A stretch of 64,000 bases of DNA from the NCBI GenBank assembly GCA_016932855.1, contig JAFGCB010000016.1, positions 554 through 64,553 of the forward strand. The letters run 5' to 3'. Below the pieces are notes generated by a model. The model did no database searches and was not told the DNA's origin. It worked only from the letters and a program-made list of their open reading frames with translations. The DNA comes from Candidatus Omnitrophota bacterium (lineage in GTDB: Bacteria > Omnitrophota > Gorgyraeia > Duberdicusellales > Duberdicusellaceae). Position 1 is the stretch's first letter. Each line of letters begins with the position of its first letter. Of the stretch, positions 11,939-35,092 are shown piece by piece. The position numbers and the translations under genes are program-made.

Positions 11939-11990
11939 AATTATCTCGTAATGCGTAATGGGTAACGCGTTATGCGTGTATATTTTTGGC

Positions 11991-12018
11991 TTGACAAAAT
12001 ATTGATTTGAAGTATACT
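11991..12018 (+). promoter_or_regulatory. Sigma70-type promoter (TTGACA-16nt-TATACT) for rpmB. The ATG lies ~10 nt after the -10 box, giving a near-leaderless mRNA.
   Basis: Consensus hexamers read directly in the sequence. Confidence 0.4.
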
Positions 12019-12028
12019 CTTTAAAATC

Positions 12029-12280
12029 ATGAGTAAAAAATGCTTTTTTTGCGGTAAAAAATCTTCCGGGGGCAATGTTGTTCAAAGAAGAGGTCTAGCT
12101 AAGAAAAAAGGCGGCGTAGGCAAGAAAACTACCTCTATTACCAAACGTAAATTTAAGCCCAACCTTCAAAGAATAAGGGTAGATCTAAAAGGAGTTATCA
12201 AAAAAGTTTTTGCCTGTGCTAAATGCATCAAGAAAAACAAGATTCGCAAGCCCAAGCCGGCAATAAAACCCTCCCTCTGA
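12029..12280 (+). CDS. rpmB: 50S ribosomal protein L28.
   Basis: MSKKCFFCGKK...GN.V......G......RKFKPNLQ...V...G......CAKCIK pattern typical of L28. Confidence 0.7.
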   Translation: MSKKCFFCGKKSSGGNVVQRRGLAKKKGGVGKKTTSITKRKFKPNLQRIRVDLKGVIKKVFACAKCIKKNKIRKPKPAIKPSL

Positions 12281-13974: not shown

Positions 13975-14028
13975 TTTATCCTCTTGTCCAATTTAGCAAT
14001 TTAACAATATGGCAATATGACAATGGAA

Positions 14029-15663: not shown

Positions 15664-15689
15664 TTTATGACACAGATTATCAGCGATAA

Positions 15690-15795
15690 ACTCGATCCTG
15701 GATGCTCGATCCTAGATCCTTGTTTTTAGGGCATCGCGTATCGGGTGTCGTTGTTTTTCCTACGTTTGCACCCCAAGCCCGATACCCGAATATTT
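15690..15795. repeat. Family A intergenic palindromic repeat (GCGTATCGGGTGTCG ... CCCGATACCCGAATAT), copy A1, preceded by a ctcgatcct direct repeat.
   Basis: The same motifs are seen at 18221-18310 and 30069-30150. Confidence 0.6.
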
Positions 15796-15799
15796 TTGG

Positions 15800-16168
15800 T
15801 CATCTGCGAAAACGGAAGGCTACTTTCTTGGCGTCTTTAAACAATCTTTCAAGTTTATAGAAATCCCTTCTTTCCTCGGAAAATATATGAAAACAAACAT
15901 CTACATAATCGATCAAAGACCAGCCTCCTTCTTCATCCTTTTCCATATGATGAATGGAAAAACCCTCTTCTTTGGATAGCTTAACAAGCTCTTCCAATAT
16001 CGCGCTGGAATGAGGAAGAGAGGTAGAGCTTACAATCACAAAATAATCCCAGATAAAATTAAGCTTCCTTAAATCCAAAACAACAGGCTTAAGAGGATGC
16101 TTACGAGAAGCTGCCTCAAGAAGCCTTTTTGCTTTATCGCGGGAATTTAGAGACCGGCTTTTCTTCAT
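15800..16168 (-). CDS. rsfS: Ribosome silencing factor RsfS (Iojap family).
   Basis: DYFVIVSSTS...GGWSLIDYVDVCFHIFSEERRDFYKLERLF pattern. Confidence 0.8.
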   Translation of the reverse strand: MKKSRSLNSRDKAKRLLEAASRKHPLKPVVLDLRKLNFIWDYFVIVSSTSLPHSSAILEELVKLSKEEGFSIHHMEKDEEGGWSLIDYVDVCFHIFSEERRDFYKLERLFKDAKKVAFRFRR

Positions 16169-16174
16169 CTGCCT

Positions 16175-17446
16175 TCAAGCCAAGCTTCTTAAAGTTCTCT
16201 TAAGGCAAGAAGCGTAACTTTCCTTCCTGTTGGTTACTATGGCTACTTTTAATCTATTGTAAGAGAAAATCTCCCGGCAGACCCTTCGTATATCGTGGGC
16301 GGTAATTTTTAGAGCCTCTCTTTCTATGTCTTGATATGAGAATACCTTATCTAAAGTGCAAACTGATTCTCCGATATAAAGCATGGAATTCAAAGTCGAT
16401 TCTAAAAGCATGGAAAGATTACCCAGAAAATAATCCTTTGCCCTTAAAAGCTCGTCTCTTCCTACGAGCTTTTCTTTAAGCTTATTAAACTCCTTTATTA
16501 TAACCTTAAAAGCGAGCTCCACATTCTTGGAATCCAGGCCGCAGTGAACCACAAAAGCTCCGGTGTCCTTGTATTTCCTAAGCCCGGTCGATACTTCATA
16601 AGCCAAGCCTCTTTTTTCTCTGATTTCCTCAAAAAGCCGCGATGACATGTTTGCTCCTAAAATAATATTCACAAGCTCCAGAATAAATCTCTTTTTATCC
16701 GAATAACTAAAGCCGGGCAGGCCCAAAGACAAATGAGTCTGCTGGAAAGAAGTCACTTCCTGTTTTATTTTAAGACCCGGAAAGAATCTGGCTCTGGGCG
16801 ATTTTCGGGGTCTTAGTCTAGGGTTATCTGCGAATTTGCCGCGGATAATCTTCTCAAAATCCTCAGGCAGGCTCTTGGCACAAACAGCCACAACTATATT
16901 TGAAGGCCTGTAAAATACATTTTTAAATTCCCTTAAACTCTTCTGGGATATGCGCTTAACCGATTCCCTGGTCCCGATAACGTCCATACCTAAAGGATGC
17001 TTACTCCAGATAAGCTCCTCAAGGATGCTTGCCACCCTTGATGACGGCATATCATTATACATTCTAATTTCTTCCAATATCACTCCTCTTTCTCTCTGAA
17101 TATCCTCTTTTTTAAGAAGGGGGCTTGCCACCATATCCGAGAGAACATCGAAAGCGCTCTTGCAGTTCTTATCCAGAATCTTAGCGAAGTAGCAGGTGAC
17201 CTCCTGGGAAGTAAACCCGTTTAACTGACCTCCCCTTCCTTCAATCTGCTGCTTTATCTTCTTATAAGAATAGTTCCTGGTCCCTTTAAAAAGAAGATGC
17301 TCTAAGTAATGGGCAATGCCTTTAAAACTTAAGGGCTCGCAGCGCGCTCCGCGCCTAACCCATATGCCGATGCTTGCGCTTTCAACATTCTTGAACTCTT
17401 TGAATACCAGCTCGAGCCCGGAAGGAAATTTTATCCGTTTAACCAT
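16175..17446 (-). CDS. M16 family zinc metallopeptidase (insulinase/pitrilysin-like).
   Basis: HYLEHLLFKGT inverted zinc-binding motif (HxxEH). ATG at 17444-17446 is preferred over the TTG at 17494. It overlaps the trpA 3' end by 16 nt. Confidence 0.8.
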   Translation of the reverse strand: MVKRIKFPSGLELVFKEFKNVESASIGIWVRRGARCEPLSFKGIAHYLEHLLFKGTRNYSYKKIKQQIEGRGGQLNGFTSQEVTCYFAKILDKNCKSAFDVLSDMVASPLLKKEDIQRERGVILEEIRMYNDMPSSRVASILEELIWSKHPLGMDVIGTRESVKRISQKSLREFKNVFYRPSNIVVAVCAKSLPEDFEKIIRGKFADNPRLRPRKSPRARFFPGLKIKQEVTSFQQTHLSLGLPGFSYSDKKRFILELVNIILGANMSSRLFEEIREKRGLAYEVSTGLRKYKDTGAFVVHCGLDSKNVELAFKVIIKEFNKLKEKLVGRDELLRAKDYFLGNLSMLLESTLNSMLYIGESVCTLDKVFSYQDIEREALKITAHDIRRVCREIFSYNRLKVAIVTNRKESYASCLKRTLRSLA

Positions 17447-18213
17447 AAAGTAAATTTCTCGAAGTCCTTTAGAAAATTCCTGTTTTTGCGGCAAATAAGA
17501 ATCTTCTTGATAAGAACGCTGCCGGCTATCACGCCGTCAAAGTATTTTTTAAACATGCGGGCCTGTTTCTGGCTGGAAATTCCGAATCCTATGCAGACGG
17601 CGGCACGCACCTGTTTCTTTATCTTCTTTATATGTTTAAATATTTTCGAGGGAAGGGTTTTTCGCGGTCCGGTAACGCCTGTCACTGAAATATAATAAAT
17701 AAAACCGGACGACAACCTGTCAATAAGCCTTAAGCGTTCCTTCTGGGTGGTAGGAGAGATAAAGAATATAGTATCGATATTATTCTCGCGGGCTTTGTTT
17801 ACGAAATGCCCCGCCTCTTCAGCTAATAAATCAGCTACGATAACGCCGTCTATAAGCCTGCTGAAACGCTTAAAAAACTTATCAATTCCCATATGATAAA
17901 CAGGATTATAATAGGTCATGAGAATTAAAGGAGCTCTTATTCTGGACTTAAGTTTTTTAAGCGAAGATAAAAGCTTGTAAATATTGGCCCCTTTATCAAG
18001 GGCTATTTTGGAAGAAGTCTGGATTATCGGCCCGTCAGCGATGGGATCAGAGAAAGGGAGACCTATTTCGATAAAGTCAGCTCCGGCTCTATCTAAAGCC
18101 ATAACTATTGACTCGAATGTTTTCATATCCGGAAAACCAAAGGTCATATAGGGGATAAAGGCCTTCTTGCCCTGTTTCTTCAACTCTCTAAATTTTTCTC
18201 TAATTAATCCCAT
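17431..18213 (-). CDS. trpA: Tryptophan synthase alpha chain.
   Basis: N-terminal KKAFIPYMTFGFPD...GADFIEIGLPFSDPIADGPIIQ. Confidence 0.9.
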   Translation of the reverse strand: MGLIREKFRELKKQGKKAFIPYMTFGFPDMKTFESIVMALDRAGADFIEIGLPFSDPIADGPIIQTSSKIALDKGANIYKLLSSLKKLKSRIRAPLILMTYYNPVYHMGIDKFFKRFSRLIDGVIVADLLAEEAGHFVNKARENNIDTIFFISPTTQKERLRLIDRLSSGFIYYISVTGVTGPRKTLPSKIFKHIKKIKKQVRAAVCIGFGISSQKQARMFKKYFDGVIAGSVLIKKILICRKNRNFLKDFEKFTLWLNG

Positions 18214-18220
18214 CTCGCGC

Positions 18221-18310
18221 CCTTACGCTCCATTTCGGGTATCGGGTATCGCGCATCGGGTATCGTTTTATTCCGATACTCTACACCCCATACCCGACAC
18301 CCGAATATCA
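18221..18310. repeat. Family A intergenic repeat copy A2, lying between trpB and trpA inside the trp operon.
   Basis: cgggtatcgggtatcgcgcatcgggtatcg ... ccccatacccgacacccgaatat. Confidence 0.6.
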
Positions 18311-18328
18311 AGGGTTAAAAACCCTTAT

Positions 18329-19492
18329 CTAAATAAATTCATTTACTATTTCCAGATCTTTATCGCCCCTTCCCGACAAACACATGACCACAATGGAATT
18401 CTTCTTGGCGCTTCTGGATAAATTCTTAAGGTATGCCGCCGCGTGAGCTGATTCAAGCGCCGGTATAATCCCTTCTAACTCCGAAAGCATCTTAAATCCC
18501 TGTAGAGCCTCTTTGTCAGATACCCCGACATAGCGGGCTCTCTTTATCTTTTTATAATAGGAGTGTTCGGGCCCGACTCCGGGATAATCAAGGCCGGCGG
18601 CTACAGAATATGCTTCTTCAATCTGGCCGAATTTATCCTGAAGTACATAAGATTTTGAGCCGTGAAGCATACCTACGCTTCCTTTAATAAGACTCGAGGC
18701 ATGATGACCAAGATAACCTTTTCCCTTGGCTTCCACTCCCAGAAACTTCACTTTCCTGTCTTTAAAAAAGGGGTGAAACAAACCTAAAGAATTGCTGCCT
18801 CCTCCCACGCAGGCAACAAGATAGTCAGGCAATCTCTTTTCAGCCTTTAGTATCTGCTTGCGCGCCTCTTTTCCGATTACCGCCTGTAAATCTCTTACTA
18901 TAAGAGGATAAGGATAGGGCCCGACAGTCGAGCCCAGAAGATAGTAAGTATTCTCTACATTGGTTACCCAATCCCGCAAAGCTTCATTGCAGGCGTCCTT
19001 TAAGGTCTGGGAACCGCTGGTAACCTCTAGTACTCGCGTACCCAAAAGCCTCATCCTGAAAACATTCATCCTCTGCCGCTGAATATCTACCTTTCCCATA
19101 TATACGTCACATTTTTTACCGAAAAGAGCGGCAACCGTGGCGGTAGCCACCCCGTGCTGGCCGGCCCCGGTCTCGGCAATAATCCTTTCCTTTTTCATCT
19201 TTACGGCAAGAAGAGCCTGACCTAAGGCATTGTTTATCTTATGGGCGCCGGTATGAAGCAAATCTTCCCGCTTAAGGTATATCCTTAACTTAAATTCTTT
19301 ACTTAAGTTTTTTGCGAAATAAAGAGGAGAGGGCCTTCCTGCGTACCGGCTCAAATAGAACTTAAGTTCATCCTGAAAAGCTTTATTTCTTGAATACTTA
19401 CGGTAAGCCCGATCAAGTTCCCTTAAAGGATACTCCAAAGTCTCGGGAATAAATCTTCCTCCAAAATCACCGAAATATTCTCTCTTAGCCAT
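18329..19492 (-). CDS. trpB: Tryptophan synthase beta chain.
   Basis: [38 protein letters not shown]-site motifs. Confidence 0.95.
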
Positions 19493-20120
19493 GGCCTTGT
19501 GCCTCTTTTACTTGCGCTATAAATTTTCTTACTAAATCCCCGTCCTTTTTTCCCGGAAACCTCTCGACACCTCTGGCTACGTCTACCGCGTAAGGTCTTA
19601 ATTTCTTAACCAGGCTTCTTACATTGACAACAGACAATCCTCCGGAAAGAATTAAGAAATTAAGCTGTCCGGCTATTTTCTTAATAATCCTGAAATCCAA
19701 AGTGGCCTGCGGTTTTGCGCTCTTCTCCTCAAAAGGTATGTCTAGAAGCACACCGTCCAGGCGAAACTTTAGAATCCTTGAAACAATATCCGCGTCCTTA
19801 GGAAAAAAACTCTTAATTACTTTAAAATTTTTTCTGAACCTGGCACAATATGATGCTGATTCTGCGCCATGAAACTGCAGCGTATCAAGCCCTACAGAGT
19901 TAGCGATTCTAAACACAGAATCCTCGTTTTCGTTAACGAAGACCCCTACTTTACTTACAAAACAAGGCAGGCCCCTTACTATTTTTTCAGCCTCGCGCGG
20001 CAAGATATAACGAGGGCTTTTAGGATAAAATATAAAGCCAAGGGCACTGGCCCCTGCTTCAACGCACAGAGAGGCGTCTTCCTTGTCTTTAATCCCGCAT
20101 ATCTTGACCCTCGTATTCAT
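19485..20120 (-). CDS. trpF: Phosphoribosylanthranilate isomerase.
   Basis: [39 protein letters not shown]. Confidence 0.85.
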
Positions 20121-20164
20121 CTTAAGATTATCTCTTTACTATTTTAATGATAAATCCATTCTAA

Positions 20165-20375
20165 AATCCCAATTTCCAATACTACCAAACAAATCCCATC
20201 CTTCGATTACACTCAGGATGGCCCTGAGTATTCCCGAAGGGCCAACTTCCAAATCCCAAGATGTTTTGGATTCGGGATTTTGCCTGCCTGCCGGTAGGCA
20301 GGTATTTACTTGGGATTTGGTAATATTGGGTTTTGGGATTTAATTTGGGTTTTGTCATTTGAAATTTGGAATTCC
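20165..20375. repeat. Family B intergenic repeat copy B1 (AAATCCCAAA/TTTGGGATTT units; CCAATACTACCAAA ... TTTGGTAATATTGG inverted arms; central CCTGCCTGCCGGTAGGCAGG hairpin). It lies between trpF and trpC.
   Basis: Shared motifs with 36421-36606 and 52720-52800. Confidence 0.6.
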
Positions 20376-20384
20376 GACAATATA

Positions 20385-21170
20385 TCAATCTCTACAGCCT
20401 ACTTTAAATTCTTTAAGCTTCTCTTTGATATCCTCGGCTCTCATAAGAGCCTCGCCGATCAACACCGCATCCACACCGGCTCCTTTTAGAAGAAGAATTT
20501 CTTTGAGCGAGGATATGCCGCTTTCGCTTACAACAAGAGTATCCTCGGAAATAAGCGGGCTTAACTGCAAAGTCGTATCTAAGTCCACCTCAAAGGTATC
20601 TAAATTTCTATTATTTATTCCTATGATCTCAGGGGACAGCTTAAGCGCCTCTTTTAGCTCTTTCAAGCTGTGAACCTCGACAAGCACATCCATACCTAAT
20701 TCCCTGGCAAGGGTATAAAGTTTTTTAAGCTTCTCCGGCTTTAATATCTTAACTATAAGCAGAATAGCGTCCGCTCCCAAGGCCCGGGACTGGTATACCT
20801 GGGTCTCATCGATAATAAAATCCTTTCTCAAGACAGGAATATTGGACTTTTTCTTTATCTCCTTTAAAAACTTAAGTTTTCCTAAGAAAAATTCTTCCTC
20901 GGTTACTACCGACACGGCCTGAACCCCTACTTTCTTATAATCCTGCAAGATCTCAAGATGATTAAAATCCTGCCTTAGCACACCGGAAGAAGGAGAAGCT
21001 TGTTTAATCTCGGCAATAATTGAAATATTTCTGTCTTCTCTTAAAGCCTTGGAAAGCGATAAAATCTTAGGGGCCTGCTTAGTCAGAGAAATTATTTCTT
21101 TCTCGGATTTCCTGAGAATATTAATCTTTTTCTTCTTGGCCTCTATGATTAAAGAAAGTACTTTATGCAT
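20385..21170 (-). CDS. trpC: Indole-3-glycerol phosphate synthase.
   Basis: IIAEIKQASPSSG and VQAVSVVTEEEFF motifs. Confidence 0.9.
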   Translation of the reverse strand: MHKVLSLIIEAKKKKINILRKSEKEIISLTKQAPKILSLSKALREDRNISIIAEIKQASPSSGVLRQDFNHLEILQDYKKVGVQAVSVVTEEEFFLGKLKFLKEIKKKSNIPVLRKDFIIDETQVYQSRALGADAILLIVKILKPEKLKKLYTLARELGMDVLVEVHSLKELKEALKLSPEIIGINNRNLDTFEVDLDTTLQLSPLISEDTLVVSESGISSLKEILLLKGAGVDAVLIGEALMRAEDIKEKLKEFKVGCRD

Positions 21171-21226
21171 AACCTGCTTAAAGCTAGAGAGTTAAGACTG
21201 ATTTTTTATTATCCTGAACTTATAAA

Positions 21227-22249
21227 TCATTTGCGTGAATTTAGAAATTCTTTTAATTCTTGAAGTTTCTTAAGGGCTGCCCCGCTTTCAATCTGTTCTC
21301 TTGCAACTTCTACCCCCTGTTTAAAGTTTTTAGCCAACCCCGCCAAAACAAAACAGGCCGAAGCATTGGCCAACACCACATCAAGCCTTGCCGAGGGTTT
21401 AGCGCTAAGAACGCCAAGAACGGAATTTACGTTATCCTCTACCCTACCGCCTTTTATTTGAGAAAAACTCCTGCGGCTTAACCCGAAGTCGCGGGGACTT
21501 ACATAAAAAGTCCTGATCTTCTTATTTTTAACCTCGGTTATTTTGGTCTTTGCGCTAATGCTTATTTCATCATAGGTATCCTCGCCCCACACAACAAAAG
21601 CCCTCTTGGTCTTAAGATCCCTTAAAACTTTAGCTACTTTTTCCGTCAAATCTTTACTGTAAACTCCTAAAACCTGATGGGTTGCGCCTGCCGGATTAGT
21701 AAGGGGGCCTACTATGTTGAATATGGTTCTTATTCCTATCTCTTTACGCACCGCGGCTACGTTTCTCATGGCCGAATGGTATAAAGGAGCGTATAAAAAA
21801 CCTATGCCGACTTCTTTTACTGCCTCCTCAACCACTTTAGGCTCCAGACTCAAGTCAATGCCCAAGCCTTCAATTACATCAGCGCTGCCGCAGACTCCGG
21901 AAAAAGAGCGATTGCCGTGTTTAGCTACCTTTATGCCTTTTGAGGCTATGACAAAAGCCGTACAGGTCGATATATTAAAGGTTTTAACAGGCTTGCCCCC
22001 GGTACCGCAAGTATCTAAAACTATGGAGCCTTTCTCCGCTACATTTAACTTCAGAGACTTTTCTCGCATAATCTCAGCCAAGGCTCTCATCTCATCCGTA
22101 GTCTCTGTCTTAATCCGAAGACCTACGAGAAAGGCCGCTGCCTGGGCCGGGGTCGCCTTGCCTTCCATAATCTCCAGGAAAACCTGCTTTGCCTGAAGAT
22201 AAGAAAGCTTTTCTCCCTGGCATAATTTATTTATCGCTTCTCTAATCAT
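21227..22249 (-). CDS. trpD: Anthranilate phosphoribosyltransferase.
   Basis: VLDTCGTGGK...HGNRSFSGVCGSADV motifs. Confidence 0.9.
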   Translation of the reverse strand: MIREAINKLCQGEKLSYLQAKQVFLEIMEGKATPAQAAAFLVGLRIKTETTDEMRALAEIMREKSLKLNVAEKGSIVLDTCGTGGKPVKTFNISTCTAFVIASKGIKVAKHGNRSFSGVCGSADVIEGLGIDLSLEPKVVEEAVKEVGIGFLYAPLYHSAMRNVAAVRKEIGIRTIFNIVGPLTNPAGATHQVLGVYSKDLTEKVAKVLRDLKTKRAFVVWGEDTYDEISISAKTKITEVKNKKIRTFYVSPRDFGLSRRSFSQIKGGRVEDNVNSVLGVLSAKPSARLDVVLANASACFVLAGLAKNFKQGVEVAREQIESGAALKKLQELKEFLNSRK

Positions 22250-22815
22250 AGTTTTAAGAAATTCTTAAGAAGAGACTTACCGTCTCTAGTCAATATTGAT
22301 TCAGGATGAAACTGTATTCCAAAACACTTTGAATTCTTTACCTTTATCGCCATTATTTCTTTTTCTTTTGTTTCGGCACACACCTCTAATATCGAAGGCA
22401 GCTTCTTTCTGTCAATTATCAAAGAATGATACCTTGTAGCCACAAAAGGAGACTTAAGGCCCTTAAAGACATGCTTTTTATTATGATAAATAAGAGATGT
22501 CTTACCGTGCATTATCCTGGATGCCCTTACGATCTTGGCGCCCATTGCGAAACCGATGGCTTGATGCCCGAGACATACTCCCAAGAGAGGTATTTTATCA
22601 TAAAATTCCTTAATTAAGGAAACAGAAATCCCGGCACGCTCAGGCCTTCCCGGCCCGGGAGAAATTACTATCTTGCTGGGCCTAAATCTCCGAATCCCAG
22701 GTATAGTTATCTGGTCATTTCTTTTTACCGTGACCTCCGCGCCCAGCTCTGAGATATACTGGTAAAGATTATAAACAAAAGAATCGTAATTATCTATCAA
22801 CAAAACTTTCTTCAT
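22246..22815 (-). CDS. trpG: Anthranilate synthase component II (glutamine amidotransferase, TrpG/PabA type).
   Basis: MKKVLLIDNYDSFVYNL...LGVCLGHQAIG...FGIQFHPES catalytic triad context. The likely start is the ATG at 22813-22815. ATGA overlap with trpD. Confidence 0.85.
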   Translation of the reverse strand: MKKVLLIDNYDSFVYNLYQYISELGAEVTVKRNDQITIPGIRRFRPSKIVISPGPGRPERAGISVSLIKEFYDKIPLLGVCLGHQAIGFAMGAKIVRASRIMHGKTSLIYHNKKHVFKGLKSPFVATRYHSLIIDRKKLPSILEVCAETKEKEIMAIKVKNSKCFGIQFHPESILTRDGKSLLKNFLKL

Positions 22816-22933
22816 TTTTTTGTATATCCTTGGACTTTCGATCCTCGTTTTAAGACACAGCACCTGGCGCCATGCACTTAACACCTATACTCTTAAGAAC
22901 AAACATAGAGTATCAACAAATCAAATTTAAACT

Positions 22934-24196
22934 CTATTCTCTGCCCCGCCGCACCTGAGCACCTAGCTGTTCAAGTTTTGAGATGAAGTTTTCATAGCCT
23001 CTATCAAGATGATAAAGCCTGTGGATTATGGTCTTGCCGCTTGCGCAGAGGCCGGCCGCAACCAGACAAGCCGAAGCCCGAAGATCCGAAGCCATAACCT
23101 CGGCATGAGAAAATTTTCTTGAACCCTCTACTACCGCCACGGAGCCAAAACGGTTTATTTTAGCTCCCATTCTATTAAGCTCGGGGACATGCATGAATCT
23201 GTCAGGGTATACCTTCTCGGTAACCGTAGAAATCCCTTCAGCCTGCGAAAGTAAAACCATAAACTGGGCCTGCAAATCTGTAGGAAAACCGGGGAAAGCC
23301 AAAGTAGTAATATTTGCGGGATTAATCTTTCGATGCCGCTTTACGCATATACTGCCGTTCTTTATCTGGACATGCTGGCCCATATTTTTAAGGGCATCAA
23401 TAACCGCGCCCAAGAAAGAAACCGATATGTCTTCTATCACCAGCGAACCTCCGGTTGCTATAGCAAAAACAATAAAAGTCCCTGCTTCGATGCGGTCAGG
23501 GATTACTCTATGCTTAAAACCGCTCAGTTTCTTCTTGCCTCTTACAGTTATCTGGGGCGTGCCTTCGCCCTGGATATCAGCTCCCATTTTCTTTAAAACT
23601 TTGGCTAAATCTACGACCTCGGGCTCGCAAGCCGCGAAATCAATTATAGTCTCTCCGCTGGCAAGGGTCGAAGCCATCATAATATTGGCAGTGCCTAGAA
23701 CCGAGGGACCAAAAGGGCTTCCTAAAAACATCTCTTTGCCCAAAAGCCCCGAGGATGAAGCATAGCAGTATCCTCCGGAAATTCTAATATTAGCCCCTAA
23801 TTCTTCAAGCCCTTTCATATGCAGATCTACGGGCCTGATGCCGATGACGCAACCTCCCGGTAAAGAAACCTTGGCTCTCTTCCTTTTGGCAAGAAGAGGC
23901 CCTAAGACGCAGAAAGAAGCCCTCATTGTTCTTACCAGCTTGTAAGGAGCCACAAAGCTCTTATTGCTCCTTGTCTTTATGGTAAGAGAGTCTTCCTGGA
24001 AATATACTCTCTTACCTAAAACCTCTAGTATTTTGACCATAGTATGCACATCCAGAAGGCGGGGGACATTCTCAATATGACACTCTTCGTCAGTAAGCAG
24101 GCTTGCCGCCATTATAGGCAAAACCGCGTTCTTTGAACCGGAAAGCCTTACTTTCCCCTTTAATTTCTTACCGCCCCAAACCTCTAACTTATCCAT
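22934..24196 (-). CDS. murA: UDP-N-acetylglucosamine 1-carboxyvinyltransferase.
   Basis: N-terminus MDKLEVWGGKKLKGKVRLSGSKNAVLPIMAASLL..ENVP matches the MurA pattern (rather than AroA). Confidence 0.85.
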   Translation of the reverse strand: MDKLEVWGGKKLKGKVRLSGSKNAVLPIMAASLLTDEECHIENVPRLLDVHTMVKILEVLGKRVYFQEDSLTIKTRSNKSFVAPYKLVRTMRASFCVLGPLLAKRKRAKVSLPGGCVIGIRPVDLHMKGLEELGANIRISGGYCYASSSGLLGKEMFLGSPFGPSVLGTANIMMASTLASGETIIDFAACEPEVVDLAKVLKKMGADIQGEGTPQITVRGKKKLSGFKHRVIPDRIEAGTFIVFAIATGGSLVIEDISVSFLGAVIDALKNMGQHVQIKNGSICVKRHRKINPANITTLAFPGFPTDLQAQFMVLLSQAEGISTVTEKVYPDRFMHVPELNRMGAKINRFGSVAVVEGSRKFSHAEVMASDLRASACLVAAGLCASGKTIIHRLYHLDRGYENFISKLEQLGAQVRRGRE

Positions 24197-24198
24197 AA

Positions 24199-25038
24199 CT
24201 AAATAGATGCCGGTTCCCAGAGGCCAAAACCATTCTCTATCTGGTTCCTGGTTTCTTCCTCCAATACAATAACTCTATCTATCCCCGCATAATCTTTTAC
24301 AACTTTTACTAATTCAAAGCCGCAACTTTCCGCGTAGCCTACTGTATTCTGCCTTTGACCATATCCTATCTCAAGAAATAACAGACCTTTTGCTTTTAAA
24401 TAAACTCTCGCTGCCTTGATTATCTTCCTTATGGCATCCAATCCGTCTTTACCACCGTCTAAAGCAATCCTGGGCTCATAATCCATCCGGTGCTTGCGGA
24501 TATAATCAGACTCAACATAAGGAGGGTTAGAGACAATTATATCAAAAGATTTCTCTCTAAAACACGACAATAAATCGGCTTTTACAAGATAAACATTCCT
24601 GCACTTATGCTTTAAAATATTTCTCTTGGCAAGAGCCAGGGCCTTAGCGCAAATATCAACAGAGAAAAACTTAAAAAAGGGATTTTTTTCTGCCAGGGCA
24701 ACCGTAATATTTGCCGAGCCAGTGCCGATATCCAGAATAAACAGCTCTTTCCTGCCGCCTGAATATTGAAGAACAGCTTCAACCAAAATCTCCGTCTCCG
24801 GCCGGGGTATTAATACCGCCTCGTCAATCTCGAATTCTAAACCAAAAAAAACAGCTTTTTTTAAAAGATATTCCAAAGGCCTGCCTTTATCGTGTTCTCT
24901 AATAACCCGGCTTAATGACTCTTGCTCAGAGGCAGTCAGGTTCCTTTTTCCCGATATATAATCATAGAAATCAATATTAAAAAGCTTCTCAATCGCGAAT
25001 TTTAGATCCGAAGTGCTTATTTGAGGCTTAAGCTTCAT
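24199..25038 (-). CDS. prmC: Release factor glutamine N5-methyltransferase PrmC/HemK.
   Basis: IVSNPPY motif with class I MTase motif I (LDIGTGSANI). ATGA overlap with prfA. Confidence 0.85.
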   Translation of the reverse strand: MKLKPQISTSDLKFAIEKLFNIDFYDYISGKRNLTASEQESLSRVIREHDKGRPLEYLLKKAVFFGLEFEIDEAVLIPRPETEILVEAVLQYSGGRKELFILDIGTGSANITVALAEKNPFFKFFSVDICAKALALAKRNILKHKCRNVYLVKADLLSCFREKSFDIIVSNPPYVESDYIRKHRMDYEPRIALDGGKDGLDAIRKIIKAARVYLKAKGLLFLEIGYGQRQNTVGYAESCGFELVKVVKDYAGIDRVIVLEEETRNQIENGFGLWEPASI

Positions 25039-26093
25039 ACTCTCGACTTTCTCTCCTTCAAGATTAAAGGCTTTATTATCAAATCCAGGTTACCTTCCAT
25101 GGCTTCTTCCAGCCTGTATACGGTAATCGGCCCTCTATGATCAGTAACTCTTCTCTGGGGAAAATTATAAGTCCTTATCTTTTCGCTTCTATCGCCTGTT
25201 CCGATTTGCCGCCTTCTCTCGGAATCAATTCCTTGGGCCTGGGCCCGCTTCTGGTACTCAAGAATCCTGGCCTTTAGAATACGCATTGCCTTTTCTCTAT
25301 TCTTGATCTGGGAACGCTCATCCTGACAAGTAGCCACTATTCCCGAAGGTAAATGCGTAATCCTTACGGCTGAGTCAGTGACATTTACATGCTGGCCTCC
25401 CGCGCCCTTGGCCCTAAAAGTATCAATGGTCAAATCTTTAGGCTCAATCTGGACCTCGAGAGCACTTGGCTCCTTAAGCACGGCTACGGTCACCGTTGAA
25501 GTATGGATTCTTCCTCCTGATTCAGTAACCGGAATCCGCTGAACCCTGTGAACCCCGCTTTCAAACCGGAAATGAGCGTAAGCGCCCTTGCCCTTAACCG
25601 CAAAAATCACTTCTTTAAATCCTCCTATTTCCGTGGGCTGAGAATCCAAGACTTCCATATTCCAGCCCTTATTTACGACGTATTTTGAATACATCCGGAA
25701 AAGGTCAGCCGAAAAAAGCGAAGATTCCTGACCGCCGGCAGCAGGCCTTATTTCCACAATTACGGTCCTGTCGGGCTCCTGCTCTTCCTGATAAATCATC
25801 TCTTCTATATCTTCCTCGATATTGCCGACTTTTTCCTGAAGATTGCCGAGCTCCTGCTGGGCAAGCTCCAATATATCTTGACTTTCCTTCCCGTTATTAA
25901 GCATATTCTCTAAATCGCCTCTTTGCTTCAGAAGGCTCTTGTATTCTTTCGAGAGTTTTATCAATTCTTCCAAAAAGGAAAATCGCTTGGCAAGCTTCTG
26001 ATATTTATCCCTGTCAGAAATAATGTCCGGCGAAGCAAGCAACAAGGACAATTCCTCGTGTTCTTTTTCTATCTTTTCAAGATCTTCAAACAT
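25035..26093 (-). CDS. prfA: Peptide chain release factor 1.
   Basis: GGQHVN motif. PVT tripeptide at the PAT position. Adjacent prmC. Confidence 0.9.
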   Translation of the reverse strand: MFEDLEKIEKEHEELSLLLASPDIISDRDKYQKLAKRFSFLEELIKLSKEYKSLLKQRGDLENMLNNGKESQDILELAQQELGNLQEKVGNIEEDIEEMIYQEEQEPDRTVIVEIRPAAGGQESSLFSADLFRMYSKYVVNKGWNMEVLDSQPTEIGGFKEVIFAVKGKGAYAHFRFESGVHRVQRIPVTESGGRIHTSTVTVAVLKEPSALEVQIEPKDLTIDTFRAKGAGGQHVNVTDSAVRITHLPSGIVATCQDERSQIKNREKAMRILKARILEYQKRAQAQGIDSERRRQIGTGDRSEKIRTYNFPQRRVTDHRGPITVYRLEEAMEGNLDLIIKPLILKERKSRV

Positions 26094-26166
26094 AGCTAAG
26101 ACTCCAGACTAAAGACAAAAGACTTTAATCTAGATTTCTCCGGTCTTGGGTCTTGCGTCTTTAGTC

Positions 26167-26370
26167 TTATTTTGATTTCTGGTATTTCTTGATAAACTTA
26201 TCGACCCTTCCCTCGGAATCAACAAACTTCTGTTTACCGGTAAAGAAAGGGTGGCATTCCGAGCAAATCTCCACGTGTATATTGGGCTTTGTAGAACGGG
26301 TATGGATTACATTGCCGCAAGCGCAAATTATCGTGGACTCTACATATTTAGGGTGTAACTTCTTCTTCAT
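26167..26370 (-). CDS. rpmE: 50S ribosomal protein L31.
   Basis: MKKKLHPKY...C.CG......[25 protein letters not shown]. Confidence 0.85.
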
Positions 26371-26392
26371 CTTAGAACCTCCTTAAAACATC

Positions 26393-26532
26393 AAACCTAT
26401 TGTCAAAAATTTTAATAATATTTTAATAAATCAAAATTCAAAAGGAAAAAGTCAAAATTTCAATTCAAAAGTTAAAAGTTTTGGATTTTGAATTGCAATT
26501 TTGCATTTTGAATTTTTACTTTTAAGTTTTCA
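26393..26532. repeat. Family C AT-rich intergenic repeat copy C1 (CCTATTGTCAAAA ... TCAAAAGGAAAAAGTCAAAATTTCAATTCAAAAGTTAAAAG), with internal inverted aaaattcaaaa/ttttgaatttt.
   Basis: Near-identical blocks at 42411-42530. A related copy lies at 37020-37140. Confidence 0.55.
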
Positions 26533-27780
26533 TTATTGATTCATGGTCAAAAGAAACTCGGCGTTGCTTTTTGTCCGGGAAAGCCGTTCAATAAGAAGCT
26601 CTATTGCCTCTACCGAGTTTAAGTCGTTTAAGACCTTGCGCAGTATCCAAATCCTCTGAAGCTCATCGGGATGCAGTAAAAGCTCTTCCCTTCGGGTGTT
26701 GGAACGCTTAATATCCACCGAAGGATAGATTCTCCGCTGGAAGATATTTCTATCCAGGTTTATCTCCATATTTCCGGTTCCTTTAAATTCTTCGAATATC
26801 ACGTCATCCATCCGGGAGCCTGTATCCACCAGGGCTGTGGCGATAATAGTAAGTGAGCCTCCTTCTTCTATGGCTCTTGCCGCTCCGAAAAACCTCTTGG
26901 GTTTATGAAGGGCGTTGGAATCAATTCCGCCGGAAAGGATTCTTCCTGAATGGGGCTCAACAAGATTGTAGGCCCGGGCAAGCCTGGTAATACTGTCGAG
27001 AAGAATTACCACGTCTCGTTTGTGCTCAACCAGCCTTCTGGCCTTTTCAAGGACAATCTCGGCCACTTGGACATGCCTATCAGCCGGTTCATCAAAGGTA
27101 GAGCTTATCACCTCGCCTCTTACCATCCTCTTCATCTCAGTAACTTCCTCGGGCCGTTCGTCAATCAAAAGAACCATCAAAAGCACGTCGGGATTGTTAG
27201 TCACTATAGAATTGGATACTTTCTGCAAAAGCACGGTCTTTCCGCTATAGGGCGGTGCAACTATAAGGCCCCGCTGGCCCTTGCCTATGGGGACAAGTAA
27301 ATCTAATATTCTCGTAGAAACCTCTTCAGGCTTAGTCTCCAACAGAAATCTCTCCTTAGGATAAACCGGAGTCAAATTATCGAAAAGAACCCTGTTCTTA
27401 ACCTCTTCGGGGTCTTCGAAGTTAACCGCCTCGACTTTTAGAAGCGCGAAATACTTCTCGTTTTCTTTGGGAGGCCTGATCTGACCGCTTACCGTATCTC
27501 CGGTCTTAAGAGAAAATTTTCTAATCTGTGAGGGCGAAACATATATGTCGTCGGGAGAAGGAAGGTAATTGTAGTTCGGCGAACGCAAAAAACCGAACCC
27601 CTCAGACAATACCTCCAAAACACCGCTGCCAAACATAAGGCCCTCTTTCTCGGCCTGAGCCTGGAGAATTTTAAAAATCAAGTCCTGCTTCTTAAGGCCG
27701 CTTGCGCCGTTTATTGTTAAATCCTTGGCAATCTTGCTAAGCTCTGATATTTTGGTCTCTTTCAGCGTCCCGATATCCAT
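26533..27780 (-). CDS. rho: Transcription termination factor Rho.
   Basis: Rho N-terminal domain, RNA-binding and ATPase motifs ([15 protein letters not shown]). The likely start is the ATG at 27778-27780 (MDIGTLKE), preceded by GGAGG. Confidence 0.9.
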
Positions 27781-27932
27781 TGCTACCTCCTTTGGTCTGG
27801 CACTAGAGCGCTTAACCATAACGCTACCTCCGTTCGATAAGAGAACAGAAAACAGAATACAGACAACAGAAAAAGACTCTTCTTCTTTCCGGGCTCTGCA
27901 CTCTATGCTCTGCGCTCTCTAAAAGTTTGTAA

Positions 27933-28526
27933 TTAACTCCCAATAATTTTTTGATATAAAACATCCGCTTTCTTCTTTAATTCCTTTAAGGTCCCGGTGT
28001 TCTCAATAACAAAGTCAGCTCTTTTTATCTTCTTTTCTAAAGGCAACTGCTCTCTGATCAAGTTTATAACCTGCTTCTTAGTATATCCCGATTCTATTGC
28101 CCGCTTCAGCTGCAGCTTAAGAGGACAATTTACTAATGTTATTTTATCAAACAGCCTGTCAAGCTTAGCCTCAAAAAGCAAAGGAACTTCCACGATTAAA
28201 ACTTCGGCTTTTTTCTCATAAGATGCAATCCTTTTCTTAAGGTGTTTTATAATATAAGGATGGACAATCCTGCTAAGAGCCTTAAGATCGCTTCTGCCGG
28301 GATTGTTCAACAATCTTTGCTTAAGTTTTCTTCTGCTTACCCTGCCCTGTTGCAGTATATCTTTTCCGAATTTTTCTACCAGACTTCTCTTTAAAAAGCT
28401 GTCTTTTAAAAGAAGTTCATGATAAATCCTGTCAGCGCTCAAAAAGGCTGCCCCTTTTTTCTTAAAAAACTTAGCAAGCGTGCTTTTCCCGGTTGCAAAA
28501 CCTCCGGTCAAACCTATAAGAATCAT
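27933..28526 (-). CDS. coaE: Dephospho-CoA kinase.
   Basis: MILIGLTGGFATGKST P-loop with CoaE layout. Confidence 0.85.
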   Translation of the reverse strand: MILIGLTGGFATGKSTLAKFFKKKGAAFLSADRIYHELLLKDSFLKRSLVEKFGKDILQQGRVSRRKLKQRLLNNPGRSDLKALSRIVHPYIIKHLKKRIASYEKKAEVLIVEVPLLFEAKLDRLFDKITLVNCPLKLQLKRAIESGYTKKQVINLIREQLPLEKKIKRADFVIENTGTLKELKKKADVLYQKIIGS

Positions 28527-28568
28527 CCTCGTCTCTTATTTAAGGTCAAAACGACATAGATATAAAGA

Positions 28569-28632
28569 GTGCTAGGCGTTAGGTGCTAAGTTATTAATAT
28601 TTAGTTGGCACCATGCGCCTTGCCCTAAGCAC
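28569..28632. repeat. Family D palindromic repeat copy D1 (GTGCTAGG...GGTGCTAAGTTATTAATATTTA...CCTAAGCAC), overlapping the glgA stop codon.
   Basis: A 23-nt block (AGGTGCTAAGTTATTAATATTTA) is identical to 40978-41000. Confidence 0.6.
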
Positions 28633-30001
28633 TCTTGTAAAGCTGTACATAATCCTTGGCTGCTGTTTCCCAAGAGAAATTAAGACCGGCGACTCTCTTC
28701 TGAAGCGCTGTTAAAGAATCTTTATCCGAAAATAAGGAGCTTGCCCTTTCTACGGCATCTAGCAGGGCCTCCTGGGAATACTGCAAAAAAACAAAACCGT
28801 TACCTTTGGACTTATCCCGGGTGTAATCAACTACCGTATCTTTAAGCCCCCCGGTAGCGTGGACTAAAGGCAGAGTAGAATATTTAAAACTTATCATCTG
28901 CGACAAACCGCAAGGCTCAAACCTTGAAGGCAGAAGGAAAACATCGCTGCAGGCGTAAATCCTATGAGCCAGCGTTTCATCAAACTTAATATGCAAAGAA
29001 AAGCTCTGGGGATGCTTTTTAGCTAAAGAAGAAAGGATATCATGGTACTTTGGATCTCCGGTGCCCAAAATTACCACCTGGTGATTCTTTAATATTGAAG
29101 GCATGGCACCGGAAAGGATATCCACGCCTTTCTGCTCGGTAAGACGCGATACCATACCTAACAGCAAGGTATTTTTATCTTTCTTAAGCCCGAGCTCCTT
29201 TTGAAAAGAAACCTTATTCTGAGCTTTTTTATCTAAATTCTTTTTATCATACTGCAAATATATAGCCTTATCAGAATCCGGATTCCAAACATTGTAATCA
29301 ATAGCGTTTAAGATGCCCGAAACTTTGTGGCTGTGCTGTCTCAATATATGGTCAAGACCGCAGCCGGCTTCTTTCGCCTGAATCTCCTGGGCATAGCTGG
29401 GGCTTACCGTATTTACCCTGTCAGCTTTAATAATCCCGCTCTTAAGAAAATTAAGCTTTGAATAAATCTCCAAGTCCGGCATGTACCCTTTAGAAAGTCC
29501 CAGAAGATCAAATTGGTCTAAGCTAAACAGCCCCTGAAAAGCTAGGTTGTGAATAGTAAGAACGGTCCTAGCCTTTTTGAAAAATTTATCTTTTTTATAA
29601 AACTCCTCCAAATATAAGGGTAAAAGCGAAGACTGCCAATCGTTGCAATGTATGATATCGCAGGAAAAACCTATCTTCTTAAGCACCTCCAAAGACTTCC
29701 TGCAAAAAAAACTAAACCTCTGCAGATTGTCGGGATAATCACCTTGAGCGGTATTATAAAGCTGGTCTCTTAAGTAATAATTATCGTTTTTTATAAACAC
29801 CACCTCAATATTCTTTCCAACCTTTGACAGACCGAAATCTTCGCTTAAGCTTTCGGGCTTTATTCCTTTATAAAGAGGCATAAAAATCTTAACCTCAAGA
29901 CCCAGCTTTTCAAGGCCTAAAGGAAGCGCTCCGGCTACGTCAGCAAGGCCCCCGGTCTTAGCGAAAGGAAAAACCTCAGACGAAAGAAATGCAACTTTCA
30001 T
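28625..30001 (-). CDS. glgA: Glycogen/starch synthase (GT5, ADP-glucose type).
   Basis: KVAFLSSEVFPFAKTGGLADVAGALP N-terminal motif. The start at 29999-30001 (MKV) with GGAGG upstream is preferred. Confidence 0.8.
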   Translation of the reverse strand: MKVAFLSSEVFPFAKTGGLADVAGALPLGLEKLGLEVKIFMPLYKGIKPESLSEDFGLSKVGKNIEVVFIKNDNYYLRDQLYNTAQGDYPDNLQRFSFFCRKSLEVLKKIGFSCDIIHCNDWQSSLLPLYLEEFYKKDKFFKKARTVLTIHNLAFQGLFSLDQFDLLGLSKGYMPDLEIYSKLNFLKSGIIKADRVNTVSPSYAQEIQAKEAGCGLDHILRQHSHKVSGILNAIDYNVWNPDSDKAIYLQYDKKNLDKKAQNKVSFQKELGLKKDKNTLLLGMVSRLTEQKGVDILSGAMPSILKNHQVVILGTGDPKYHDILSSLAKKHPQSFSLHIKFDETLAHRIYACSDVFLLPSRFEPCGLSQMISFKYSTLPLVHATGGLKDTVVDYTRDKSKGNGFVFLQYSQEALLDAVERASSLFSDKDSLTALQKRVAGLNFSWETAAKDYVQLYKSA

Positions 30002-30068
30002 TTTTTTCTCCTCCATTTAAAAGTTTTAGGTGCTTAAGACCAAAACCTTTTCTTTAATCCTCAATTTT

Positions 30069-30150
30069 TCGGGTGTAGCGTATAGGATATCGGGTTTTGG
30101 GAAAATAAATACGACACCCGATACGCGATGCCCGATACCCGAAAGACAAG
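30069..30150. repeat. Family A intergenic repeat copy A3, in inverted orientation, between glgA and polA.
   Basis: cgacacccgatacgcgatgcccgatacccgaa. Part of it is the reverse complement of gcatcgcgtatcgggtgt at 15731. Confidence 0.6.
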
Positions 30151-30192
30151 AATCTTGAAACGATTGTCTAGGATCGAAACTTGGTCTTAAGC

Positions 30193-35040: not shown

Positions 35041-35092
35041 AGTTTTGTCTTACACAGATGATTGCAGATAAACCATCTGTGATCATCTGTGT

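Follow-up and report, generated by a model that had tools for sequence, protein, structure and literature searches.

Dispersed palindromes of heptamer repeats in the operon spacers of a Candidatus Omnitrophota bacterium

How do similar palindromes come to lie in several operon spacers of one bacterial genome, and what do they do there? The question is raised by a stretch of 64,000 nucleotides from a Candidatus Omnitrophota bacterium (assembly GCA_016932855.1, contig JAFGCB010000016.1, positions 554 to 64,553), referred to below as the window, in which three intergenic elements had been singled out as related palindromic repeats. These elements, here named Family A and labelled A1, A2 and A3, are a real family of related copies and represent a new sequence family of an already described, little-studied kind of repeat. 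In each of their arms a degenerate 7-nt unit, ATCGGGT, is repeated a few times in tandem. The explanation preferred here, with a probability of about one half, is that they are dispersed palindromes of heptamer repeats whose copying and changes in size take place in the DNA, and which are tolerated because their transcripts form compact stem-loops without ending transcription. Coordinates are positions within the window unless a locus from another genome is named.

Three related copies and the heptamers of their arms

A1 is an imperfect palindrome in the rsfS-argS spacer (15729-15793, plus strand), recognized from its sequence and by repeat detection, with a conserved arm GGGCATCGCGTATCGGGTGTCG at 15729-15750 and a second arm GCACCCCAAGCCCGATACCCGAATAT at 15768-15793. 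A2, also an imperfect palindrome, occupies the trpB-trpA spacer (18233-18308, plus strand); its left arm reads TTCGGGT ATCGGGT ATCGCGC ATCGGGT ATCG (18234-18265) and its right arm extends over 18274-18308. A3 lies in the polA-glgA spacer (30066-30144, minus strand) and is inverted with respect to A1 and A2, in agreement with the original prediction; its conserved arm TTCGGGTATCGGGCATCGCGTATCGGGTGTCG is found at 30112-30143 on the minus strand and its diverged second arm at 30068-30094. The block GGGYATCGCGYATCGGGTRTCGT is common to the three copies (plus strand 15729-15751, plus strand 18244-18266 and minus strand 30111-30133). The second arm CCCGAYACCCGAAWAT is common to A1 and A2, and A3 retains only the part ACACCCGAA. 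The shared motif of two arms that had been ascribed to all three elements thus holds throughout for the first arm and in A1 and A2 for the second. The elements are also richer in GC (0.54, 0.50 and 0.47) than their 500-nt flanks (0.40-0.42), as had been observed.

The kinship of the copies, at the sites first indicated, is carried by motif counts and by alignment. With at most one mismatch allowed, ATCGGGTRTCG has 11 matches in the window for 0.72 expected, all of them within A1-A3, and none of 100 dinucleotide-preserving shuffles reached this number. Pairwise repeat detection gives 75% identity over 65 nt between A1 (15729-15793) and A2 (18244-18308), 89% over 37 nt between A2 and the inverted A3, and 90% over 30 nt between A1 and the inverted A3. 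A chance similarity of low-complexity or GC-rich sequence, or an assembly artefact, might be suspected from the number of copies, only three, and from their source, a metagenome-assembled genome (MAG). Against this stand the shuffles, an alignment over 65-80 nt that includes loops and mismatches, and the presence of A1 and A2 in both the NCBI MAG and the Logan assembly of SRR13394437, so that the probability of such an origin is negligible. The two assemblies agree on A1 and A2 except for one single-nucleotide polymorphism in A1, which argues against a one-off assembly error, with the reserve that the Logan assembly possibly derives from the same reads as the MAG. No fourth copy was found in the 64 kb with a profile hidden Markov model built from the three copies. 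In a genome collection that excludes the source genome, the 19-nt Family A core has 15 matches, mostly in high-GC taxa, for about 17 estimated by chance; one of the 15 (locus L011) is a genuine heptamer array.

The Family A palindromes measure about 75-95 nt; in each of the three, one arm consists of ATCGGGT-type units, facing ACCCGAT-type units on the opposite arm. The A3 arm reads TTCGGGT ATCGGGC ATCGCGT ATCGGGT GTCG on the minus strand, and the arms of A2 and A3 were both detected by a lag-7 scan. The conserved arm of A1 corresponds to the A3 arm deprived of its outermost 7-nt unit; the gap between the two copies is exactly 7 nt, with homology on both of its sides (CTTGTYTT on one, GGGCATCG on the other). 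An odd heptamer, ATCGCGY, stands second from the loop in all three conserved arms, and another odd unit, (T/A)TGGGGT, is common to the other arm of A1 and A2. The non-complementary positions are identical between these two copies, and the loops of all three open with a T-rich run followed by CC. Since odd units, mismatches and loops are shared in the same order, whole elements were copied, as opposed to arrays having expanded independently. The homology between A1 and A3 extends about 15 nt past the hairpin on one side only, and the boundaries of the elements are fuzzy. A role of the heptamers as suppliers of stop codons in three frames, as proposed for TAACTGA, was considered and rejected, since arrays of ATCGGGT and ACCCGAT contain no stop codon.

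Family A copies are accompanied by further structures in their spacers. A3 is nested in the loop of another hairpin: the fold of spacer 30017-30192 encloses it in an outer 12-nt perfect palindrome, of which the glgA-proximal arm reads GCTTAAGACCAA on the plus strand (30032-30043) and the polA-proximal arm TTGGTCTTAAGC (30181-30192) abuts the polA stop codon. Between this outer arm and A3 lies a small hairpin, AGACAATCGTTTCAAGATTCTTGTCT (30144-30169, minus strand), the 3′ half of which, AGATTCTTGTCTT, is homologous to the sequence AGATCCTTGTTTT flanking A1. In the fold of spacer 18214-18328, a small 6-bp hairpin, AAGGGTTTTTAACCCTT (18310-18326, minus strand), directly follows the stop codon of trpB and precedes A2 in the transcript. 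The range originally given for the first copy, 15690-15795, does contain A1, but it also takes in a separate heptamer array outside the shared core, CTCGATC CTGGATG CTCGATC CTAGATC C (15691-15719, plus strand, lag-7 scan). This array folds into its own small hairpin in the fold of spacer 15664-15799 and has the 13-mer CTCGATCCTGGAT in common with the right arm of a hairpin in the polA-glgA spacer of a relative (L105).

Folding, probable read-through and turnover in the operon spacers

All three copies lie between co-directional genes of the minus strand, and the assignment of these genes by Pfam confirms the one first proposed: rsfS (15800-16168) and argS (14029-15663) for A1, trpB (18329-19492) and trpA (17431-18213) for A2, and polA (30193-32721) and glgA (28625-30016) for A3. 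On the transcript, the palindromes proper start about 12, 23 and 49 nt past the upstream stop codon. Only 19 nt separate the end of A2 from the ATG of trpA (18213), a start borne out by database protein P0001 (260 aa, 100% identity). Since a promoter would not fit into so short a distance, transcription has to pass through A2.

The position of A2 bears directly on the proposal that the elements serve to terminate or attenuate transcription, whether as Rho-independent terminators or as a hairpin-only type characteristic of this phylum. Strong GC-enriched stems starting 0-25 nt after stop codons would suit such a role, and the conserved arm taken alone scores weakly as a terminator-like site, its 6-bp stem running into a T-rich tail, on the plus strand of A1 and on the minus strand of A3. 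The full hairpins of A1-A3, however, are followed on the sense strand by A-rich or mixed sequence and not by U-tracts (tails TAAAAACAAGGATCT, TGGAGCGTAAGGGCG and ATTGAGGATTAAAGA), and terminator-like sites are no commoner in the region than in shuffles (28 versus 23 ± 5). Termination at A2, inside the trp operon, would silence trpA; moreover, the orientation of the copies is not conserved and the same junctions are free of hairpins in relatives. A terminator function, which had been among the suggested outcomes, is for these reasons very unlikely. Rfam 15 yielded no match at gathering score on either strand of the whole window.

Orthologous spacers give a view of how the elements come and go. 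Syntenic loci of relatives, designated by L-numbers, were collected via TrpA and GlgA homologues, and the nearest relatives have a TrpA that is 70-73% identical. The trpB-trpA spacer, 115 nt long in the window with A2, measures 302 nt in L002 (TrpA 73%), where the fold is complex, with nested small hairpins and no array by lag-7 scan, and 106 nt in L004 (70%), where an unrelated hairpin of GTCACAN units folds at -47 kcal/mol. It is 76 nt long and without hairpin in L020 (64%), 30 nt in L021 (58%) and 6 nt in L023 (45%); A2 does therefore split, as anticipated, a junction that is tight in relatives. The rsfS-argS spacer is 136 nt long in the window (A1) and 110 nt in L002, with a GAGTAGN hairpin of -52 kcal/mol, and is reduced to 8 nt in L020 and 4 nt in L021. 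The polA-glgA spacer is 176 nt long in the window (A3), 144 nt in L105 (GlgA 70%), with a GATACNC/ATCGAGN hairpin, and 46 nt in L107 (GlgA 61%), which has no array. In the closest clade the same spacers are thus occupied by different sequences, while more distant relatives keep tight junctions of 4-46 nt without hairpin, which indicates that elements of the Family A type are dispensable and turn over fast. An orthology of A3 with the L105 hairpin, suggested by units that are one base apart (ATCGAGT versus ATCGGGT), was rejected because the C-type arm comes first in L105, an order that strand inversion cannot yield. A Family A-like hairpin of TCGGTTR units is found in the spacer downstream of rsfS in L022.

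The three copies fold far better than shuffled sequence, as the original prediction led one to expect. On the sense (minus) strand the folding energies are -27.8 kcal/mol for A1 (z -4.7), -45.3 kcal/mol for A2 (z -7.5) and -27.7 kcal/mol for A3 (z -2.9); the corresponding antisense values are -21.1 (z -2.6), -33.7 (z -5.8) and -33.9 kcal/mol (z -4.9). A consensus structure of 22 pairs is common to the three copies. Its register is shifted by one heptamer in A2 and A3, which implies that the arms can pair in more than one register. When the comparison is extended to 37 hairpin-bearing spacers of the window, L002, L004 and L105, the sense strand is the more stable in 25 and the antisense strand in 12, with a mean sense-antisense difference of -5.4 kcal/mol (Wilcoxon p = 0.001) and 228 G-U pairs on the sense strand versus 128 on the antisense strand.

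This sense-strand excess invites an interpretation in terms of selected cis-acting RNA, in which the elements would set the relative expression of operon genes, either as processing and stability signals (RNase III or RNase E sites, barriers to 3′ exonucleases) or as targets of a protein binding one heptamer per domain, of which cold-shock-domain proteins are capable. The occupation of the same spacers in the three closest genomes despite unrelated sequences points in the same direction, and so do stems of 20-35 bp with internal mismatches. Long stems with internal mismatches resemble known RNase III substrates. A precedent for the recognition of heptamers is CspB of Bacillus subtilis, reported to bind heptamer direct repeats with one protein per heptamer (as cited in PMC4679880). 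Yet distant relatives with the same gene order do without the hairpins altogether, the orientation of A3 gives the weaker fold to its sense strand, covariation is lacking, the sense bias may be mutational, and the sequence family is not linked to the function of the neighbouring genes. Selection for such an RNA function is therefore unlikely.

According to the preferred reading, that of heptamer palindromes copied and resized as DNA, the three copies would descend from one progenitor, copied into new spacers by a DNA-level process, and one of them, A3, would have been inserted in the loop of a pre-existing palindrome. The arms would then gain or lose whole 7-nt units through replication slippage, a process whose mark is seen in the gap of exactly 7 nt between A1 and A3, in the unequal GAGTAGN arms of L105 and in the only internal indel between L002 and L003 (see below). 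Slippage by the polymerase has been proposed to account for the excess of heptamer repeats in the intergenic DNA of many bacteria (PMC4692102). Each copy would be co-transcribed with its neighbours and fold into a long stem-loop that, for want of a U-tract, would not terminate transcription; it would persist as a compact structured insert that an operon spacer can tolerate. Passive effects may follow from its presence. Translational coupling may be broken, as at trpB/trpA, the untranslated spacer may stay structured and thereby hinder Rho loading, and the stem-loop may hold back 3′ exonucleases or be a place where the transcript is processed, by analogy with repetitive extragenic palindromes (REPs) in E. 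coli.

Several points weigh against this reading. Only three copies are known, and the transfer of an entire palindrome to a spacer far away is more than simple slippage can account for. Slippage also fails to explain a 27-nt GAGTAGN arm, CTCTACTCTCTACTTGCTACTCGCTAC, that is identical in L002 and L023, although the AroA and PrfA proteins of the two are only 59% identical; part of this identity could reflect convergence in a restricted unit ‘alphabet’, with few variants in use. In all three copies the better-folding strand follows the orientation of the element and not the direction of transcription, which leaves Family A itself without evidence that its sense RNA is selected, and the G-U positions look inherited from the progenitor. 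Only 1 of the 22 consensus pairs is compensatory; an almost complete lack of covariation is expected for recent copies and gives no support to a selected structure. The sense-strand bias of the class as a whole fits the retention of RNA structure and also a strand-biased C-to-T mutation, and could stem from the latter instead of from selection. Lastly, co-transcription, read-through and any effect on stability are all deduced.

Copying at the DNA level could also be the work of a non-autonomous mobile element in the strict sense, that is, a REP or REPIN (REP doublet forming a hairpin) moved by a RAYT (REP-associated tyrosine, or Y1, transposase), or a miniature inverted-repeat transposable element (MITE) moved by an insertion sequence (IS) transposase located elsewhere in the genome. 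Dispersed copies with inherited mismatches, one of them inverted, the nesting of A3 inside another palindrome and the variable occupancy of orthologous spacers among relatives are in line with such an element. A better-folding strand that is a property of the element fits recognition as a single-stranded DNA hairpin, and small palindromes are central in heptamer hairpins of related genomes (CCTGCCTRCCGGYAGGCAGG, CCCCGTAAAGCTTCGCAACGGGG). However, target-site duplications are wanting, with no direct repeat of at least 4 nt at the boundaries of A2 and A3 (±4 nt) and nothing but low-complexity TTTTT at A1, and the boundaries are blurred by the one-sided extension of the A1/A3 homology. No GTAG/GTGG head occurs at either end of the Family A arms, when a GT(A/G)G head is the feature that defines REPs (PMC2817692), and the arms are not themselves palindromic, unlike the halves of a REPIN. 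No Y1 or other transposase domain was detected in the 30 window proteins scanned against Pfam. Heptamer periodicity and size steps of 7 nt are predicted by neither the REP/REPIN nor the MITE model. Scans of viral contigs with the Family A core and the GAGTAGN core gave in one case a chance match inside a coding region and in the other nothing, and hence no link to phages. Strict mobility is on balance unlikely. Of the initial description as MITE- or REP-like mobile or RNA-structure elements, a loose likeness to REPs remains, as homologous palindromes in spacers; the MITE part falls with the missing duplications, the REP head is absent, and no transposase was found among the 30 window proteins scanned.

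Heptamer hairpins in the window and in other genomes

Family A does not stand alone, a point that the first description missed together with the heptamer make-up of the arms. When all spacers of the window are folded, most of the co-directional ones carry long hairpins with heptamer-periodic arms whose sequences are unrelated to Family A, which is one of at least 10 heptamer-array families within 64 kb. Close relatives, too, have hairpins of this class in most of their co-directional spacers, and the class is presumably genome-wide. A local periodicity scan of the window retrieves 10 arrays of period 7 that are not of low complexity, versus 0-1 for every other period from 4 to 12, and all 10 lie in spacers or at the edges of open reading frames (ORFs). 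Self-identity is 0.299 in non-coding versus 0.254 in coding sequence at lag 7, and 0.295 versus 0.252 at lag 14, the non-coding values being diluted by long spacers that probably contain unlisted genes. Such spacers, probably holding short or unlisted genes, are found at 8612-9040, 26180-26420, 44849-46049, 54895-55430, 57358-57628 and 62697-63393; by synteny with L002 and L023, rpmE lies within 26094-26532, and a small helix-turn-helix-like ORF is possible in 8612-9040.

The units of these arrays are diverse. They include GCAGAGC (27820-27932), CACAGAT (35041-35092), TACGAAT nested in AAATCCC (36407-36606), CCAGAAG (37940-38024), AAGACNN (26094-26180 and 42539-42566), TTTTGAA-type units (26420-26532 and 42391-42500) and GGGATTT-type units (20121-20384 and 52688-52862). 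The GGGATTT/AAATCCC family forms very long hairpins at 20155-20366, 36399-36585 and 52719-52802, and is also present in L004 (919-968). The whole spacer 20121-20384 folds at up to -91 kcal/mol, and the arms of this family are 85-96% complementary between copies 16-32 kb apart; its unit is similar to the GGGGATT repeats of Nostoc and the GGGAATC repeats of Xanthomonas. AT-rich hairpins of the TTTTGAA/TTCAAAA type occur at 26373-26537 after rho, at 42390-42501 inside the carbon monoxide dehydrogenase/acetyl-CoA synthase (CODH/ACS) cluster and at 37027-37156 after a pterin-binding gene. A (TTTTGAA)3 array has been reported upstream of recF in Nostoc PCC 7120 (bioRxiv 10.1101/2022.06.06.494920; PMC4692102).

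The window that holds these arrays is rich in housekeeping genes, with a type II secretion secretin, an AddA-like helicase-nuclease, recJ, the trp operon, aroA, prfA, rho (26533-27819), coaE, glgA and polA, together with the CODH/ACS (Wood-Ljungdahl) cluster and a NiFe hydrogenase. Further small repeats are scattered among them. Mini-palindromes of 20-25 nt are central in heptamer hairpins of the window and of relatives, the two mentioned above being examples, and those of 20-23 nt recur within and between genomes: CCTGCCTGCCGGYAGGCAGG is found in the window (20283-20302) and in L004 (3439-3458), and CCCCGTAAAGCTTCGCWACGGGG four times in L002, where mini-palindrome sites lie at 6263-6312, 7278-7300 and 8042-8064. 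Two 63-nt spacer elements, at 28561-28623 after glgA and at 40958-41020 inside the CODH/ACS cluster, are 76% identical, have GCTAGGTGCTAAGTTATTAATATTTA in common and constitute another dispersed hairpin family. A 26-nt palindromic element, CCATCCTTCGATTACACTCAGGATGG, exists as inverted copies at 20196-20221 and 61226-61251, 41 kb apart and 85% complementary; one copy is nested in the GGGATTT hairpin, and the spacer 61141-61343 is packed with further GC-rich mini-hairpins. The argS-recJ spacer (13975-14028) contains a direct array of period 8 and not 7 (CATATTGC CATATTGT TAAATTGC TAAATTGG), without a hairpin partner. An array CGTAATG CGTAATG GGTAACG CGTTATG (11947-11977) falls within the AddA-like ORF (9041-12085), in a 5′ end that was assigned by mechanical ORF calling, upstream of the first Pfam domain (residue 56). 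The true start codon of this ORF is probably downstream of the array, and a CGTAATG-type unit occurs several times in L002. Repeats with a period of 222 nt, 60-78% identical, at 4453-5292 inside a secretin/TPR gene of 1312 aa are most simply explained as tandem protein-domain repeats, unrelated to the intergenic elements.

Among relatives, the GAGTAGN family is the most widely documented, with members in at least four Omnitrophota genomes: L002 (1426-1452, 2970-2996, 6341-6367 and 12258-12326), L105 (2078-2153 and 11362-11467), L023 (4405-4472) and L107 (15635-15665). In L105 the GAGTAGN array starts inside the 3′ end of glgA, and at least 10 units on one arm face 4-5 on the partner arm. The JGI contigs L002 and L003 are almost identical: five substitutions separate them across 12 kb, and the only internal indel, 58 nt long, falls in a heptamer element. 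This indel (L002 2983-3040) removes part of a GAGTAGN-type element and the annotated prmC start, and may mark either a genuine hotspot of deletion or a discrepancy of assembly.

The same architecture is met outside the lineage. In a control set of 783 kb of diverse metagenomic trpA loci, with TrpA at most 46% identical, period 7 accounts for 36 arrays and other periods for 1-19, the higher of these being multiples of 3, and many of the arrays are paired as hairpins with periodic mismatches. According to named members of the TrpA clusters, L045, L060 and L064 belong to Nitrospira or Nitrospirota, and L058 and L066 to Candidatus Desantisbacteria; the Nitrospira/Nitrospirota loci indicate that the architecture is not limited to Omnitrophota. 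Loci of 61-64% GC display paired heptamer hairpins made of GGCAAGN, GGCGTAA and CTCGATA units with mismatches every 7 nt (L045 3310-3430 and 17085-17200; L060 5040-5130; L064 6150-6260; L077 2040-2140 and 3790-3890; L080 2770-2890; L081 8590-8750 and 10780-10910). In L011, a MAG labelled as belonging to the Patescibacteria group, the array CGATACC CGATGCG CGATACA... matches the A2 arm at 26 of 27 positions. This intergenic direct array (2934-3015) grades from CGATACC through CGATATA and CCAAATA to TATTATT, and it is its first three units that match the A2 arm.

Repeated cores of this kind could be double-stranded DNA sites, read in both directions by a regulator or a nucleoid-associated protein. 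A conserved core of 4-5 nt at a fixed 7-bp spacing on both arms would suit such a protein, and heptamer ‘alphabets’ recur in distant genomes (GAGTAGN in L002, L105, L023 and L107; CGATACC/CGATGCG in L011). Heptameric direct repeats are bound by some regulators, an instance given in PMC5930380 being SARP-LAL of Streptomyces. What makes this interpretation highly improbable is that at least 10 heptamer families lie in 64 kb beside unrelated housekeeping genes, that orthologous spacers carry different families and that the sites are within operons and not at promoters.

A broader interpretation would see in these repeats an unrecognised system spanning several phyla, with dedicated sequence-specific machinery, instead of debris of slippage. 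It rests on the same architecture in Omnitrophota, Nitrospirota and other loci, namely degenerate 7-nt arms that are often paired, nested and filling operon spacers, and on heptamer ‘alphabets’ that are kept far beyond neutral expectation (the 27-nt GAGTAGN arm, CGATACC-CGATGCG-CGATAC in an unrelated MAG, and TTTTGAA and GGGATTT resembling Nostoc units). If it were true, a protein would read one heptamer per module on RNA or DNA, or arrays would be written from a template and spread, and Family A would be one substrate among others. Such a system is an unlikely proposition for the present, and the copying and resizing of tolerated DNA palindromes remains the preferred explanation.

Independently of the mechanism, the density, diversity, nesting and cross-phylum recurrence of heptamer hairpins are the most interesting aspect of this locus. 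The Omnitrophota lineage seems exceptional for the density and diversity of its repeats, with many families paired into hairpins in a gene-dense stretch and with hairpins inside essential operons (trp, the rho-rpmE-prfA region and the CODH/ACS cluster). Close relatives have other families at these sites and more distant ones have none, a natural before-and-after series for studying the origin, spread and turnover of arrays. The series is also suited to the question of whether the arrays change operon expression, for example the trpB:trpA ratio after the loss of coupling. For annotation, the lesson is that a heptamer hairpin is not by default to be labelled a terminator, a MITE or a small RNA.

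Comparison with known palindromes and heptamer repeats

REPs are imperfect palindromes of 20-35 nt with a GT(A/G)G head, and the RAYT/REP association was reported to be limited to Proteobacteria (Nunvar et al. 2010, PMC2817692). Family A shares with REPs, with the bacterial interspersed mosaic elements (BIMEs) that they form and with REPINs (PMC2817692; Bertels and Rainey 2011, PMC3116915) the character of dispersed extragenic imperfect palindromes, found in both orientations between co-directional genes and presumably transcribed in operons. It also has the overall size of REPINs, about 80-100 nt, and their long hairpin. It departs from them by the lack of the GT(A/G)G head and by arms that are heptamer arrays instead of individually palindromic REPs. 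No RAYT was found among the window proteins scanned, and Family A numbers three copies in 64 kb. REPs usually exceed 100 copies per genome, with a rayt gene between two inverted REPs in the same genome. REPs are known to block 3′ exonucleases and to make the genes of one operon differ in expression. These effects may be taken as the best functional analogy for Family A, and the expression ‘REP-like RNA-structure element’ is, as an analogy of function, a fair one.

Small dispersed repeats (SDRs) of Nostoc punctiforme reportedly insert into heptamer arrays and hairpins, a finding attributed to Elhai et al. in 2008. The mini-palindromes of 20-25 nt in the centres of heptamer hairpins may be likened to SDRs nested in heptamer repeats. 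Family A itself would correspond to the host, a heptamer palindrome, and not to the SDR insert of 21-27 nt.

Among the short tandemly repeated repetitive (STRR) sequences of cyanobacteria, which are tandem direct arrays, specific units are CCCCAGT, TTGGTCA and CAACAGT. Family A, with its unit ATCGGGT and its arrays paired in inverted orientation, is not of this kind. Heptamer repeats in bacterial genomes have been on record from 1990 onwards, and a study of 2007 documented that they outnumber repeats of other unit sizes (Mrazek et al. 2007, as related in PMC4692102). Tandem heptamers are represented by the STRRs of Calothrix and Nostoc, by TAACTGA (PMC4679880) and by TTTTGAA and GGGGATT of Nostoc PCC 7120 (bioRxiv 10.1101/2022.06.06.494920; PMC4692102). 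With the heptamers of cyanobacteria and Beggiatoaceae, Family A has in common the 7-nt unit, the intergenic location, the many arrays per genome, the lineage-specific abundance and the unexplained origin, and the TTTTGAA and GGGATTT families of the window are nearly the same as units known there. Those heptamers, however, mostly form direct arrays, often just upstream of start codons, whereas Family A is always a palindrome. Inverted pairing is rare in these groups, with one inverted set in 170 in the study of MacGregor and a few in Nostoc (PMC4679880; bioRxiv 10.1101/2022.06.06.494920; PMC4692102). No paper in the literature collection searched describes such repeats in Omnitrophota.

The closest known kind is that of the convergent heptamer-array pairs of Xanthomonas. 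In X. campestris and X. axonopodis, the GGGAATC repeat forms inverted (convergent) pairs of arrays whose function is unknown (Rehm et al. 2015, PMC4692102). There are 70-75 such pairs per genome, mostly between co-directional ORFs and separated from the upstream one by a mean of 28 nt; they keep their position but vary in length and sequence (PMC4692102). Family A corresponds to this description in its degenerate 7-nt tandem units, in its convergent arrays on opposite strands of one spacer, capable of forming a stem-loop or cruciform, in its intergenic site between co-directional ORFs near the 3′ end of the upstream one, and in a position that is kept among relatives as length and sequence change. 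It differs in belonging to another phylum, in its unit ATCGGGT and in having no G-quadruplex potential: the canonical G3+N1-7 ×4 motif is absent from both strands of A1-A3, and a G-rich unit capable of forming a quadruplex is a feature of the GGGAATC family specifically. Where Xanthomonas has one dominant motif, 64 kb of a single genome here contain no fewer than 10 heptamer families unrelated to one another, with elements nested in one another. Finally, the Family A copies share variant units in the same order, which sets them apart as copies of whole elements and not as independent expansions of arrays.

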